A stretch of 12,085 bases of DNA from a virus (taxonomy: Duplodnaviria; Heunggongvirae; Uroviricota; Caudoviricetes). Below, in pieces: positions 3,004 to 12,085 of the stretch; the first letter of the stretch is position 1; the number at the start of each line of letters is the position of its first letter. The position numbers were made by a program, and so were the translations under genes. The notes beneath the pieces are model-generated. The model searched no databases and had not been told where the DNA came from. It worked only from the letters and a program-made list of their open reading frames with translations. The stretch lies in the IMG/VR virus record IMGVR_UViG_2529293043_000033. One strand, 5' to 3'.

Positions 3004-3023
3004 CGGGAACTAGGAATTTCCCG
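3004..3023 (-). terminator. Possible weak terminator hairpin downstream of the repressor gene
   Basis: Inverted repeat CGGGAA-N8-TTCCCG just 3' of the repressor stop; the following U-tract on the minus strand is weak. Confidence 0.25.
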
Positions 3024-3038
3024 TCGGACCATATAAGT

Positions 3039-7295: not shown

Positions 7296-7602
7296 CCCGG
7301 CGATAACGATTGATATGGCCCTGAACGCCGGCCTGGCACTTCTTGGTTATTTCTACATTATGTTCTGCAGCGGACGATGGCTGTCACTGTTGTTCATGAA
7401 AAAATGGAATAAACGCCGTAAGCAGGAGCAACGCCAGAAGGCAATGGATGCATTTTTCGAAGCCTTCGGAATTGACGGCATGGAACCAGGGGATCCAGCT
7501 CGCGCAATCAGCAGAGGGGGTGTAGTAATCCTTGTATATCGGAGTGAAGAGAAAAATGACGATCACAAAACAACGTGTAGAAGAAATCATATCCCGCATT
7601 GA
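7285..7602 (+). CDS. Hypothetical small membrane protein
   Basis: GTG 7285 with AGGAGG 6 nt upstream. Predicted TM helix ALNAGLALLGYFYIMFCSGRWLSLLFM followed by a basic stretch. The 3' end overlaps the next gene by about 47 bp, so its extent is uncertain. Confidence 0.4.
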   Translation: MNIDPAITIDMALNAGLALLGYFYIMFCSGRWLSLLFMKKWNKRRKQEQRQKAMDAFFEAFGIDGMEPGDPARAISRGGVVILVYRSEEKNDDHKTTCRRNHIPH

Positions 7603-7873
7603 AATGTATGGACATGGTGCAGGGTATATCGCAGACGAGGTTAATGATCTGGCTATACTGGCGCTGAATTTATCAAATATCGCGAACCTGAAGCGATACG
7701 AGCTTGATATGGGAGGTTGCGACTCGTGCGGTCAGGATTGTGGCGCTGATATGACTGAAGATCCTGATGGTGATTATGTCCTGTTTGATGACGTGGTTAA
7801 GTTGTTTGAATTTGATACAACCACTCAAAAGTTAGAAATCCCGGCAAAGGAGGCAGCCAGTGGGCAAGATTGA
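7556..7873 (+). CDS. Hypothetical acidic protein
   Basis: ATG 7556 preceded by GGAGTGAAGAG. 105 aa with a CDSCGQDCG cysteine cluster and an acidic C-terminus. Confidence 0.5.
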   Translation: MTITKQRVEEIISRIEMYGHGAGYIADEVNDLAILALNLSNIANLKRYELDMGGCDSCGQDCGADMTEDPDGDYVLFDDVVKLFEFDTTTQKLEIPAKEAASGQD

Positions 7874-8492: not shown

Positions 8493-9080
8493 ATGACCAC
8501 TATTACCAAAGATCGACTGCTGACAATCCAGCATTGGCGCGAAACATACGGACCGGGTAGCAACGTTGTGCTTCCAGCAGAAGAAGCGGAAGAGCTGGCA
8601 CGGATTGCGCTGGCATCACTGGCAGCAGTATCGGATGAACGAGCAGCCTATGAATTATTTATGGAGAAGCGTTTCGGAGAATCTGTAGATCGCCGCAGAG
8701 CAAAAAATGGCGATAGAGATTACATGGTATGGGATATGGCGCTTGGCTGGATTATCTGGTGTCACCGCGCCGCCATGCTTCAGGCTGGAAACTTTCGGGA
8801 AAATAAGGGTTCGTCAACCAATAATTTTCGGGAAATCTCGGAAACGTCAACCAACTATCCGGTAACTCCGGATGGTTGGATAAGCTGTAGTGAGCGAATG
8901 CCGGATGATGGTCAGCACGTAATTATTTTATGTGATGGCGCATTCGTTCTTTATGCGCAATATCGAGACGGTGAGTTTTTTGATGTAGTCCGTAATGGTG
9001 ATGAATTTTTCGAAACACAGAGCCGCAATGTAACCGACTGGATGCCGCTACCAGAACCGCCGCAGGAGGTGCGCCAATGA
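8493..9080 (+). CDS. DUF551-domain prophage protein
   Basis: C-terminal motif TDWMPLPEPP typical of DUF551; starts 2 nt after the preceding stop. Confidence 0.65.
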   Translation: MTTITKDRLLTIQHWRETYGPGSNVVLPAEEAEELARIALASLAAVSDERAAYELFMEKRFGESVDRRRAKNGDRDYMVWDMALGWIIWCHRAAMLQAGNFRENKGSSTNNFREISETSTNYPVTPDGWISCSERMPDDGQHVIILCDGAFVLYAQYRDGEFFDVVRNGDEFFETQSRNVTDWMPLPEPPQEVRQ

Positions 9081-9160
9081 TCTGGCCTGAAGCCTTTGCA
9101 ATTACAGGCGTTGCTATAGCTATTGATTTTTTAGTATATGTTATTTGTCGGTGGGGGTAA
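9077..9160 (+). CDS. Small hydrophobic peptide (27 aa, MIWPEAFAITGVAIAIDFLVYVICRWG), not in the ORF track
   Basis: ATG 9077 overlaps the DUF551 stop (ATGA); AGGAGG at 9064-9069 gives a 7-nt spacer. One predicted TM helix. Confidence 0.4.
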   Translation: MIWPEAFAITGVAIAIDFLVYVICRWG

Positions 9161-9195
9161 AAACGTTCGCCGGGATTCACACCAAAGGAGGGAAT

Positions 9196-9300
9196 ATGTC
9201 GGATGATATTTCACTGGCAATGGAAGGTGCGCTGGCTGTTATTGCTGTTGTGGGCGTTTACTGCCTGGTTGTGTTTTTGATGGATCGACTAGGGAACTGA
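9196..9300 (+). CDS. Small membrane peptide (34 aa, MSDDISLAMEGALAVIAVVGVYCLVVFLMDRLGN), not in the ORF track
   Basis: ATG 9196 preceded by AAAGGAGGG. One predicted TM helix. Followed immediately by a perfect 22-bp palindrome. Confidence 0.45.
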   Translation: MSDDISLAMEGALAVIAVVGVYCLVVFLMDRLGN

Positions 9301-9308
9301 ATTCATTA

Positions 9309-9330
9309 CGATATGGGAATTCCCATATCG
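9309..9330. repeat. Perfect 22-bp palindrome CGATATGGGAATTCCCATATCG
   Basis: Read directly; self-complementary around GAATTC. Lies between the second small peptide and the putative hok promoter; no U-tract follows. Confidence 0.7.
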
Positions 9331-9342
9331 GGTAAAAACGGT

Positions 9343-9370
9343 TTGCGGTAAAGCGAGAGTTAAGTAGAAT
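9343..9370 (+). promoter_or_regulatory. Candidate hok mRNA promoter
   Basis: -35 TTGCGG (9343-9348), 16-bp spacer, -10 TAGAAT (9365-9370). A transcript from here to the terminator at about 9796 would be about 420 nt, the expected hok mRNA size. Confidence 0.35.
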
Positions 9371-9429
9371 TGCTGCGGGTGCTTGAGGCTGTCTGCCTCG
9401 GGCATGCCACCGTAAGGTAGACAGAGAAA

Positions 9430-9497
9430 AGCCCCAGTTAACATTACGCGTCCTGCAAGACGCCTAACATTAATCTGAGGCCAATTTCATGCTAGAC
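9430..9497 (-). ncRNA. Candidate Sok-like antisense RNA (approximate extent)
   Basis: Minus-strand promoter candidate -35 TTGCCT (9532-9527), 17-bp spacer, -10 TAACCT (9509-9504), placing an antisense transcript over the mok/hok leader and start region as in hok/sok loci. The 3' end was not resolved. Confidence 0.3.
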
Positions 9498-9545
9498 ACA
9501 TGTAGGTTAGCCTCTTACGCGCCGAAAGGCAAGGAGAAGCAGGCT

Positions 9546-9701
9546 ATGAAGCAGCAAAAGGCGATGTTAATCGCCCTGATCGTCATCTGTATCACCGTCA
9601 TAGTGACGGCACTGGTAACGAGGAAAGACCTCTGCGAGGTACGAATCCGAACCGGCCAGACGGAGGTCGCTGTCTTCACAGCTTACGAACCTGAGGAGTA
9701 A
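9546..9701 (+). CDS. hokD: Hok/Gef-family type I toxin (HokD/RelF-like)
   Basis: 51-aa product MKQQKAMLIALIVICITVIVTALVTRKDLCEVRIRTGQTEVAVFTAYEPEE, near-identical to HokD/RelF as I recall it. AGGAG 9 nt upstream of ATG 9546. An in-frame upstream ATG at 9489 gives a mok-like leader frame. Confidence 0.85.
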   Translation: MKQQKAMLIALIVICITVIVTALVTRKDLCEVRIRTGQTEVAVFTAYEPEE

Positions 9702-9770
9702 GAGACCCGGCGAGGGAGAAATCCCTCGCCACCTCTGATGAATCAGGCATCCTCAACGCACCCGCACTTA

Positions 9771-9796
9771 ACCCGCTTCGGCGGGTTTTGTTTTTT
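9771..9796 (+). terminator. Rho-independent terminator of the hok transcript
   Basis: CCCGC-TTCG-GCGGG stem-loop (9772-9785) followed by TTTTGTTTTTT. Preceded by an fbi-like hairpin GGCGAGGGA-GAAA-TCCCTCGCC at 9709-9730. Confidence 0.75.
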
Positions 9797-10832: not shown

Positions 10833-10871
10833 ACCGCCCCGGGTTTCCTGGAGAGTGTTTTATCTGTGAAC

Positions 10872-11762
10872 TCAGGCTGCCAGATCATCGTTTCCGATGG
10901 AAGCATAATAAGCTTTTTCTGCTTCTGCCGGAGGAGTATGGCCCAGCCTTCCCAGCAATCGTCGATTGTTATACCAGTCCACCCACGTTAGTGTGGCCAG
11001 TTCCACTTCTGCACGGTTTTTCCAGCTCTTACGGTGTATTACCTCCGCTTTGTAAAGACCATTGATGCTCTCAGCCATCGCGTTGTCATACGAGTCGCCT
11101 GTACTCCCTGTTGATGCCAGTAATCCGGCTTCTTTTAGTCGCTCCGTATAGGCCAGTGACACATACTGAGAGCCTTTATCGCTGTGATGGATGGTGCCAG
11201 ACGGACGACGGGCCCACAACGCCTGCTCCAGCGCATCCAGCACGAATGTCGTTTCCATAGACGATGAGACCCGCCACCCCACGATGTATCCGGCAAACAC
11301 ATCAATGATAAACGCCACATAGACGAAGCCCTGCCATGTGCTGACGTAAGTAAAATCAGCCACCCACAGCTGGTCAGGTCGTTCTGCCACGAACTGACGG
11401 TTTACGCGGTCGCCTGCGGCAACGGCTTTCCGGCTGATGGTCGTACGGACCTTTTTACCCCGGAGAACACCGGCAAGTCCCATAACCGCCATGAGACGTG
11501 CCACTGTACATCTGGCCACCCTGATTCCTTCCCGTAACAACTGACGCCAGACTTTACGCACACCGTACACCTGATGATTTTCATCGTATACGCGCTGTAT
11601 CTCTCTCTTCAGCCAGTCGTCGTGCTGCGCACGGGCACTGCGTTTATCCGGATGATGTCGCTGTTGCTGACAATGGTAATACGTTGACGGGGCAATATGC
11701 AGTTCGCTGCATACCGGTCCGACCCCGTACTGCTCACGCAGCTTATCCAGCAGTGGCATCAT
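10872..11762 (-). CDS. IS3-family transposase OrfB (DDE/integrase catalytic domain)
   Basis: 296 aa; DDE-type motifs (WVADFTYV ... [10 protein letters not shown]); overlaps the orfA stop (ATGA). Confidence 0.9.
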
Positions 11763-12085
11763 TTTTTCCAGAGGCGGTCGAACTCCGCCTTCGCAAAATA
11801 AGCGGAAGCCTGGCGAAGGATATCGTTACTGCGGCGCAGTTCACGATTTTCACGTTCCAGCTCTTTCAGACGCTGACGTTCAGCGCTGGTGAGCCCACCA
11901 TCACCGCCCCCGGTATCCCGCTCATGCTGGCGAACCCAGACACGCAGAGTCTCCGGCGTACAGCCAATCTTTGGGGCAATGGAACAAATTGCCGCCCACT
12001 GTGAGTCATATTCATCCTGACTTTCCAGAACCATACGAATCGCCCGCTGACGGACTTCGGGGGAAAAACGAGTATTTTTAGTCAT
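11759..12085 (-). CDS. IS3-family transposase OrfA (HTH and leucine zipper)
   Basis: 108 aa, [22 protein letters not shown] ... [31 protein letters not shown]. The ATG sits on the last 3 bases of the window. An A6 run at the orfA/orfB junction is the presumed -1 frameshift site. Confidence 0.9.

Follow-up and report, generated by a model that had tools for sequence, protein, structure and literature searches.

A perfect 22-bp palindrome upstream of hokD in an Escherichia coli O157:H7 prophage is a stand-alone copy of a DNA element carried inside KilA-N genes

Sites located within the gene of the protein that reads them are known from phage lambda, in which the binding sites of the O protein, the iterons, are imperfect inverted repeats situated inside the O gene, in the linker region; four tandem 19-bp iterons together with an AT-rich region make up the replication origin. 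The MCB site (ACGCGT) of the fungal APSES factors is likewise a short palindrome. In prophages, the abortive-infection protein BstA blocks phage DNA replication, and the prophage that carries it protects itself by means of aba, a short DNA-based element which lies in the bstA locus and is matched to the BstA variant of that prophage (Owen et al. 2021, PMC8585504). The aba element is active when moved to another phage or given on a multicopy plasmid; in BTP1, it is 63 bp long and non-palindromic, lies at the 5′ end of bstA and bears CCCGCC direct repeats (PMC8585504). Here, we describe a palindrome in an E. coli prophage which resembles these systems to different degrees.

The stretch of DNA analysed (hereafter the window, 12,085 bp) is a lambdoid prophage that is inserted beside potC in E. 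coli O157:H7; in the region compared, its identity to strain TR01 is 100%. Its gene order starts with an integrase, an excisionase, a racR-type repressor, a cro-like gene and ydaT, followed by O/P-like replication genes and then nin-region genes. The features surrounding the palindrome are as follows.

8493–9080: DUF551 gene
9077–9160, plus strand: small hydrophobic ORF of 27 aa (context)
9196–9300, plus strand: small hydrophobic ORF of 34 aa (MSDDISLAMEGALAVIAVVGVYCLVVFLMDRLGN), a hypothetical protein in strain TR01
9294–9308: left flank of the palindrome, gaactgaattcatta, which travels with it
9309–9330: palindrome CGATATGGGAATTCCCATATCG, a stand-alone copy of the commonest KilA-N-gene allele
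9330–9350, plus strand: left boundary of the hok/sok cassette (gggtaaaaacggtttgcggta), where common homology begins in the alignment with 933W and two further hok-bearing loci (L226, L227)
9343–9370, plus strand: likely hok promoter (−35 TTGCGG at 9343–9348, −10 TAGAAT at 9365–9370), placed from the sequence and the start of the Rfam match
9377–9551, plus strand: hok mRNA 5′ region and sok antisense RNA region (Rfam RF01794, 114 bits)
From 9489: start of the mok frame, overlapping hok
9546–9701, plus strand: hok toxin CDS, annotated as hokD
After hok: DUF968 and rusA; in the window, an IS3-family element interrupts DUF968

The initial annotation had reported a perfect palindrome at 9309–9330, and a script confirmed that CGATATGGGAATTCCCATATCG, whose first bases are CGAT, is identical to its own reverse complement; a general repeat search of the window had not listed it. 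It is the longest perfect palindrome of the window, in which 12085/4^11 = 0.003 perfect palindromes of at least 22 bp are expected, and this length was reached in 4 of 1000 mononucleotide shuffles. In single-stranded form, the 22-mer adopts a 9-bp stem closed by a 4-nt AAUU loop, with predicted folding energies of −20.9 kcal/mol (z = −4.4) for RNA including the flanks and −8.6 kcal/mol (z = −3.3) for DNA. The earlier view that this is no intrinsic terminator was upheld: a T/U run follows the stem on neither strand (the bases 3′ of it are GGGTAAAAAC on the plus strand and TAATGAATTC on the minus strand), and a terminator scan of the window called the hok terminator at 9770–9787 and nothing at the palindrome. 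No Rfam 15 family overlapped the palindrome, either in the window or in the E. coli gene described below, at the gathering threshold or at E ≤ 10.

The stop codon of the 34-aa ORF falls within the palindrome-bearing block, 8 nt ahead of the palindrome, which in turn ends 12 nt from the likely hok −35 element; in related prophages the ORF ends in ...MDRLSD and a stop, with no palindrome behind it. The centre of the palindrome is ∼58 bp upstream of the inferred hok start (∼9377), the promoter of which was not called by a simple promoter scan. Homology to other hok loci, including hokW of 933W, begins at ∼9330–9335, just to the right of the palindrome, and in 933W the hok cassette (boundary aaaacggtttgcgg) comes immediately after a homologue of the 27-aa ORF, no palindrome intervening. 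The palindrome of the window thus sits on a mosaic joint, outside the hok cassette; GGGTAAAAACG, part of the cassette boundary, recurs at 9155–9165 as a direct repeat. Like intrinsic terminators and the cis elements of hok/sok (tac, fbi, sokT), the palindrome offers stem-loop potential beside a hok cassette. Unlike them, it has no U tract, precedes the hok start, lies beyond the Rfam sok/hok model, whose match starts at 9377, and is not conserved among hok loci. Indeed, among viral contigs anchored on the hok promoter, ∼36% carry the exact 22-mer, ∼10% a damaged version and ∼55% none; the palindrome is optional for hok and not immune to decay. In this hok-upstream lineage, 12 contigs have lost 1 nt from the left arm, and one truncated arm and one substitution were also seen; in the same sample most orphan copies are intact and some lineages are damaged. 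Damaged copies of this kind are the pattern of an unselected relic and count against retained function.

The search for further copies proposed in the initial annotation proved informative. In an exact-match scan of one genome per species (GTDB species representatives, 596 Gb), the 22-mer was present in 63 species representatives as against 0.03 expected, bearing in mind that exact-match scans favour the consensus allele and that E. coli prophages are heavily over-sampled. The phyla concerned are Cyanobacteria, Bacteroidota, Chloroflexota, Spirochaetota, Bacillota, Patescibacteria and Proteobacteria, and the hosts include Nostocales, Saprospiraceae, Dehalococcoidia, Spirochaetia, Brachyspira, Bacillota, Saccharibacteria, Rhizobiales, Betaproteobacteria and several Enterobacterales. 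At 41 of the 63 loci, the 22-mer lies within an ORF matching a KilA-N profile, and in a further 22 species representatives it is not within a clear KilA-N ORF. Its position inside the gene is constant, between the codons of a '...T.xFLxEL' helix ('TxxFLxxL') and those of a 'KGG..QGTW' wing. The commonest reading is c-GAT-ATG-GGA-ATT-CCC-ATA-TCG, or D-M-G-I-P-I-S; in a Saprospiraceae/Aureispira clade, the 22-mer occupies the homologous position and its reading starts one base earlier, giving R-Y-G-N-S-H-I. Since the same 22 nt are used in two reading frames, what is conserved is the nucleotide sequence. The window copy matches the commonest KilA-N-gene allele, including that of E. coli Z247, at 22 of 22 positions. 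We are therefore highly confident that the window palindrome is, in identity and origin, a stand-alone copy of a DNA element that resides inside KilA-N genes. A search of the literature, covering for the most part journals outside subscription, found no description of a conserved palindrome in KilA-N genes.

A sample gathered independently of the palindrome allowed the constraint on this segment to be assessed. Homologues were collected from metagenomes and viral contigs with a profile starting after the palindrome (QGTWVHP, FAVxVSKWV), and deduplication left 52 distinct segments in a gapless alignment anchored on the G-I-P codons. These comprise 35 different 22-mer alleles, 33 of them with perfect 9-bp arms and 25 of them perfect 22-mers. 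Examples are CGATACGGGAATTCCCGTATCG, CCGATGTCGGAATTCCGACATCGG, CGATGCCGGAATTCCGGCATCG, CCGAAACGGGATATCCCGTTTCGG and CCGATATCGGTATACCGATATCGG, and other natural alleles have a GATT centre, end in ...ATAACG or begin with CGATACGGG; the encoded peptide shifts with the allele (DTGIPVS, DVGIPTS, DAGIPAS, ETGYPVS). Across the 52 segments, 89.9% of the cells are paired, compared with 78.3 ± 0.8 in shuffles, and pairing falls to 28–48% when the 3′ partner is slid by 1–3 columns. Double-sided changes number 60, compared with 15.8 ± 3.1 in shuffles, and changes on both sides occur in 11 of the 12 pairs, single-sided intermediates being nearly absent among the homologues. The observed pairing values were reached by 0 of 500 shuffles, a figure that overstates independence because the sequences share descent. 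Even the third position of the Pro codon, which is fully synonymous, covaries with the third base of codon 2 (G-C 37, C-G 12). Among 42 representatives below 90% identity, codon choice inside the palindrome is close to fixed (Ser TCG 96%, Ile ATA 100%, Gly GGA 81%, Ile ATT 85%, Asp GAT 93%), as compared with 31–60% for the same amino acids outside it. Sense-strand mismatches comprise 5 G·T and 11 A·C. The covariation of the arms, the near-fixed synonymous codons and the rarity of G·T wobbles together indicate that the intragenic palindrome is very probably constrained as DNA, rather than as protein or sense RNA. A hairpin in the sense RNA was considered and is disfavoured by these wobble counts, by the lack of an Rfam match and by the occurrence of the palindrome in both orientations relative to neighbouring genes.

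On these comparisons, we infer that it is as DNA that the palindrome of KilA-N genes operates, in the form of a duplex dyad or of an extruded hairpin. Self-complementarity of the central four bases, seen in 38 of the 52 segments (AATT 34, TATA 3, ATAT 1), points to a duplex dyad, since a 4-nt hairpin loop has no need of it. The strong preference for one particular sequence counts in the same direction. The freely covarying arms and the tolerance of asymmetric centres (GATT, AATC, AAAA, ATTT) count towards base pairing. The suggestion of a dimeric protein-binding site made in the initial annotation is favoured by the strict Watson–Crick covariation of the arms, the mostly self-complementary centre and the scarcity of wobbles, and the window palindrome is probably a DNA site recognised by a protein. 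Arm covariation as such fits base pairing better than a fixed protein code, unless protein and site co-evolve.

In more distant KilA-N genes, the corresponding position is taken by inverted repeats unrelated in sequence to the 22-mer: TTTTACATCCCTC, loop ACAATC, GAGGTATGTAAAA in HK544; AAATACCTCG, loop GATT, CGAGGGATTT in D3 orf11; CGATATCG, loop GGAAGA, CGATATCG in PaV-LD; TAAAGGTGGGA, loop TTT, TCCCACCTTTA in Klebsiella phage 2b; and GCCGATATGC, loop ATATTC, CCATATCGGC in LoVEphage. Two genes using the other reading frame (L231 and L234) have an inverted repeat with an ATTT loop, and Moraxella phage Mcat21 has a weak inverted repeat only. Judging from these alignments, a hairpin is a family-wide feature of KilA-N genes.

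Among the genes that carry the palindrome, E. coli is represented by that of strain Z247 (locus L065, 2433–3206, minus strand, 257 aa), in which the 22-mer occupies positions 3013–3034 of the locus. The N-terminal part of its product (WP_000200358.1) gives a Pfam-type KilA-N match; the full-length protein matches PHROG 6287, 'BstA abortive infection system, replication inhibitor' (E = 2.7e-89), and its C-terminal domain matches the PADLOC BstA model (E = 3e-21). Members from Betaproteobacteria, Brachyspira and Rhizobiales likewise match PADLOC BstA, and the BstA C-domain is present in 14 of 29 frame-1 genes with the exact palindrome; the palindrome-bearing proteins of Nostoc and Saprospiraceae have other C-termini. 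By domain matching, then, it is the KilA-N domain that the palindrome accompanies, roughly half of the genes carrying it being of the BstA type. Its presence in KilA-N genes without the BstA C-domain implies that its primary role may differ, for example autoregulation. In a search of solved structures, the sole match was Mbp1, at a marginal E = 0.27. In this weak alignment, which is taken as a lead only, SRDMGIP, seven residues partly encoded by the left half of the palindrome, form an insertion that falls directly after the recognition helix and before the wing.

Among described systems, the palindrome most resembles aba in its inferred mode of action and, by this analogy, may be a cis-acting DNA element for self-immunity or recognition belonging to a defence gene. 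Like aba, the gene-borne palindromes are short DNA elements within the coding locus of a BstA-family protein: the genes around these copies include ones whose products match BstA models, the window copy standing without a gene. The aba element acts as DNA and in a cognate manner; for the palindrome, comparative signs point to DNA-level constraint. In contrast, BTP1 aba is a 63-bp non-palindromic element with terminal CCCGCC repeats that spans the start codon, whereas the palindrome is a 22–24-bp dyad in the middle of the KilA-N-coding part and is also found in KilA-N genes that lack the BstA C-domain. BTP1 BstA aligns with the Z247 protein in the C-domain only, its N-terminal domain being divergent, and BTP1 bstA has no palindrome at the homologous place. 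Identity with the published BTP1 aba was accordingly rejected, as sequence and position differ, and the analogy with aba is one of concept and not of sequence, given that BTP1 aba is non-palindromic and BTP1 has no palindrome.

Other comparisons are more remote. The lambda iterons share with the palindrome a position within the gene of the protein that would read the site, but KilA-N genes hold a single dyad, have no similarity to O and show no sign of origin function. MCB and SCB sites are read by the same fold in Mbp1 and Swi4, eukaryotic relatives of KilA-N proteins, but they differ in sequence and are located in promoters and not inside genes, and the seven residues encoded by the left half of the palindrome are, in the weak alignment, an insertion relative to Mbp1. 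REP/BIME elements and further dispersed repeats of this type, for instance the families tagged with GTAG/CGTC (PMC3733652), are, like the stand-alone copies, short palindromes of 20–40 bp outside genes, sometimes clustered (as at L015, L040 and L051). Unlike them, the palindrome has neither a GTAG/CGTC tag nor a RAYT transposase gene, is present in few copies per genome instead of tens to hundreds, and has its primary site in a protein-coding domain.

The position of the window copy on the prophage map bears on its origin. In the Z247 sister prophage, the gene order is DUF1627 ... KilA-N (minus strand), hokD, DUF968, rusA, so that the KilA-N/BstA-like gene with the identical 22-mer fills the map slot of the window palindrome, directly upstream of hokD. 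In the window, the gene is gone; what is left is the palindrome with its surroundings, ∼40 bp in all, at the mosaic joint preceding the hok/sok cassette. Its left flank gaactgaattcatta matches the gene flank tgattgaattaattc at 10 of 15 bases, a weak resemblance, and may derive from the codons for 'ELIQ' in a KilA-N gene on the minus strand. In prophages that lack the palindrome, the natural 3′ end of the small ORF bears a loose resemblance to the window flank as well. At another locus, L226, the left flank gattgagttaacct matches the gene sequence gattgaattaactc at 12 of 14 bases, which identifies this copy as a gene relic. A reading of the window plus strand as a KilA-N fragment (IHY-DMGIPIS-GKNGLR followed by a stop, resembling Calothrix DMGIPISGKNGLIQ) was judged a coincidence and dropped, because the right flank ggtaaaaacggtttgcgg is part of the hok cassette and 933W has it too, with no palindrome beside it. 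Neither the window nor 24.7 kb of the same prophage yielded a KilA-N gene or ORF, an observation that counts against the reading preferred below.

Stand-alone copies are by no means confined to this slot. At least five E. coli prophage contexts carry the palindrome without the gene, and their flanks share nothing. With the left flank gaactgaattcatt, it stands behind a small ORF (the window and L236) or behind the paa adhesin gene (L227, L237 and L238); at L226 it follows an ORF6N gene, and at L226 and L400 it is ∼26 bp further from the same hok promoter. It is further found at a prophage end near tqsA (L228), near smrA (L239) and between Q and dinD (L241). E. coli genomes have ∼1–6 palindrome loci each (both strands counted per locus), most of the stand-alone copies in E. 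coli prophages adjoin hok, and no association with a transposase was seen in the E. coli loci viewed. In IMG/VR, 104 of the first 120 exact matches listed are stand-alone, and there are ∼15 further contexts. Throughout the virulent genus Dhillonvirus (tens of phage records), the element is always non-coding, lies just after the helicase–primase gene and is flanked by 31-bp direct repeats; in phage Teewinot, a 53-bp unit that contains GGGAATTCCCATATCG is repeated 5.1 times in tandem. Two Dhillonvirus alleles, one with the GATT centre and an asymmetric one ending in ...CCCATAACG, are identical to enterobacterial KilA-N-gene alleles, and no Dhillonvirus was among the tblastn matches listed for the KilA-N protein. 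Non-coding clusters of other palindromes of the form CG-N4-GGGAATTCCC-N4-CG were found in an Alcaligenaceae MAG, an unclassified proteobacterial MAG and Tolypothrix; the gene neighbourhoods of such clusters (L015, L040 and L051) gave no clue to function.

Several explanations for the window copy have to be weighed. The palindrome could be an inert relic, that is, the last and now functionless remnant of a deleted KilA-N/BstA-like gene, which would owe its intactness to the recency of the deletion or to intrastrand templated repair restoring perfect palindromes. The complete gene in the same slot of the sister prophage, the clearly gene-derived flank at L226 and the weaker one in the window, the damaged versions in the same hok-upstream lineage and the lack of an encoded KilA-N protein in this prophage are all in keeping with this. 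A relic of this sort would not be expected to be perfect or nearly so in at least five unrelated E. coli contexts, to hold a fixed non-coding site across virulent Dhillonviruses, in one of them as a tandem array, or to recur outside clear KilA-N ORFs in 22 further species representatives; we regard functionless persistence as rather unlikely, though it is the chief alternative. Alternatively, the sequence may act through its structure independently of KilA-N proteins, as a single-stranded DNA hairpin for priming or helicase loading or as a cruciform marking a hotspot of recombination and module exchange. The Dhillonvirus copy directly after the helicase–primase gene in a repeat-rich intergenic region, the coincidence of the window copy with a mosaic joint flanked by GGGTAAAAACG repeats, the covariation of the arms and the hairpins with asymmetric loops in distant KilA-N genes would fit such a role. 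Structure alone leaves unexplained, however, the link of the element to a single site within KilA-N coding sequences of different phyla and the preference for one 22-mer with a self-complementary centre, and we consider this explanation improbable.

Two further possibilities concern the hok neighbourhood itself. The initial annotation had envisaged an RNA hairpin separating the peptide ORFs from hok; in this capacity, a stem-loop in the early-right/nin operon transcript might be a 3′ stabiliser, a processing site or an insulator against read-through into hok. Its placement 8 nt past the last small ORF, just before the hok promoter, and its stable predicted fold are compatible with this idea, which is nevertheless very improbable, as about half of the hok loci with the same promoter do without the palindrome, a U tract and a terminator call are lacking, no Rfam family matches, and A·C mismatches outnumber G·U with nearly no G·U intermediates and a mostly self-complementary centre. 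Furthermore, a hairpin specific to this locus is difficult to reconcile with the presence of the same sequence within KilA-N coding sequences, in either orientation to its neighbours and in unrelated non-coding contexts. The palindrome might instead be an operator of the hok promoter, at which a dimeric regulator, possibly a KilA-N protein acting in trans, would modulate hok transcription: a centre at about −58 would correspond to a typical class I activator position, and most stand-alone copies in E. coli prophages adjoin hok. Yet the distance to the same promoter is ∼26 bp greater at L226 and L400, many hok loci, including hokW of 933W, have no palindrome, and copies occur far from any hok (L228, L239, L241 and the Dhillonviruses), all of which makes an operator scarcely credible. 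The association of the palindrome with hok is explained by the KilA-N gene slot adjoining hok.

The reading that we prefer is that the window palindrome is an orphan DNA site recognised by KilA-N domains and acting as an aba-like immunity or decoy element; taken as a whole, it stands at slightly less than an even chance. Its parts differ in strength. That the palindrome is a candidate DNA site of KilA-N domains is somewhat better than an even proposition, in view of the comparative evidence. The KilA-N domain would recognise it either in duplex form, as a dyad, or as a hairpin extruded from the DNA and, by homology to Mbp1, the position encoded by the palindrome would lie between the recognition helix and the β-wing of the winged-helix fold. 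Carried by a phage genome, the palindrome would then bind the matching KilA-N/BstA-like protein made by a resident prophage and put it out of action, and the window copy would be an orphan immunity or decoy site kept after gene loss. This last step, by analogy with aba, is tentative and on balance doubtful, so that a role of the window palindrome in the evasion of phage defence is to be viewed as possible. One may speculate further that the palindrome serves two purposes, as the site to which the KilA-N domain binds and as the coding sequence of that domain's D-M-G-I-P-I-S loop between recognition helix and wing. Symmetric double mutations would then change site and reader together and give rise to new cognate pairs, the palindrome would be the self-immunity switch in BstA-type proteins, and orphan copies on temperate and virulent phages would be decoys; in this full form, we find the scheme unlikely.

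If KilA-N domains do read the palindrome, it would provide a candidate cognate site, predictable from the gene sequence, for a poorly understood domain that spans phages, large DNA viruses and, as APSES, fungal cell-cycle factors. The question of how aba DNA suppresses BstA (Owen et al., PMC8585504) would become directly testable, since the large BstA branch with a canonical KilA-N domain would gain a 22-bp candidate together with a natural allelic series and orphan copies. It would also mean that a DNA-only anti-defence element exists in E. coli O157:H7 prophages and virulent coliphages, and such an element would bear on the prediction of phage host range and on phage therapy. Irrespective of function, a palindrome maintained across phyla within a protein domain, in two reading frames and with synonymous covariation, represents an unusual case of overlapping constraint.

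Two tiny, very hydrophobic ORFs and a short direct repeat were located around the 22-bp palindrome (hereafter the 22-mer) upstream of hok in the window:

9077-9160: tiny, very hydrophobic ORF of 27 aa, MIWPEAFAITGVAIAIDFLVYVICRWG
9196-9300: tiny, very hydrophobic ORF of 34 aa
9155-9165 and 9330-9340: direct repeat GGGTAAAAACG

The GGGTAAAAACG copies bracket the segment containing the 34-aa ORF and the palindrome. Since the repeat is duplicated around this segment in the window but single in phage 933W, where it lies immediately 3′ of the first small ORF, the ~175-bp segment appears to be a patch that entered by insertion or recombination where the hok cassette begins. Many prophages, 933W among them, carry versions of each ORF upstream of hok.

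The window holds another perfect palindrome, of 18 bp, for which the chance expectation is ~0.05 per window, and an IS3-family element, which splits a DUF968 gene that is intact in strain TR01:

1607-1624: palindrome GGCAGGGGATCCCCTGCC, within a 3′-5′ exonuclease pseudogene, minus strand (TR01 annotation)
~10870-12085: IS3-family element with two minus-strand ORFs
11688-11804: ALIL frameshift pseudoknot of this element

Outside the window, the 22-mer or a variant of it was found in the following loci:

L062 (Siccibacter colletis) 7601-7622: stand-alone 22-mer
L241 (E. coli OkiPb01712) 1501-1523: stand-alone GATT-centre variant between the Q antiterminator and dinD
L239 1501-1526: stand-alone GATT-centre variant near smrA
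L242 (phage Teewinot) 37661-37930: tandem array of 5.1 units of 53 bp, each with GGGAATTCCCATATCG

The Teewinot array, in which one of the GGGAATTCCCATATCG copies is a full 22-mer, lies downstream of the helicase-primase gene and is followed by GCGGGACA repeats. Other Dhillonviruses carry a single unit flanked by 31-bp direct repeats.

Several differing palindromes adjoin one another in non-coding DNA in L015 (2520-2710), L059 (1930-2000), L040 (7830-7990) and L051 (4440-4500); they take the form CG-N4-GG(G)AATT(C)CC-N4-CG, and their hosts are an Alcaligenaceae MAG, a proteobacterial MAG and Tolypothrix. In contigs L025 and L055, the 22-mer lies 22 nt from the contig ends, a placement expected of a repeated element.

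The right flank of the Siccibacter copy, gattaaattcaacgattt, is similar to the codons for ELIQSF in the KilA-N gene, although it now includes a stop codon. This copy is another gene relic in which the palindrome is intact. The two GATT-centre copies have a common right flank, atccaccagcttcat..cggata.ccg.aaaatgataacggt, and represent a further conserved context of the stand-alone palindrome.
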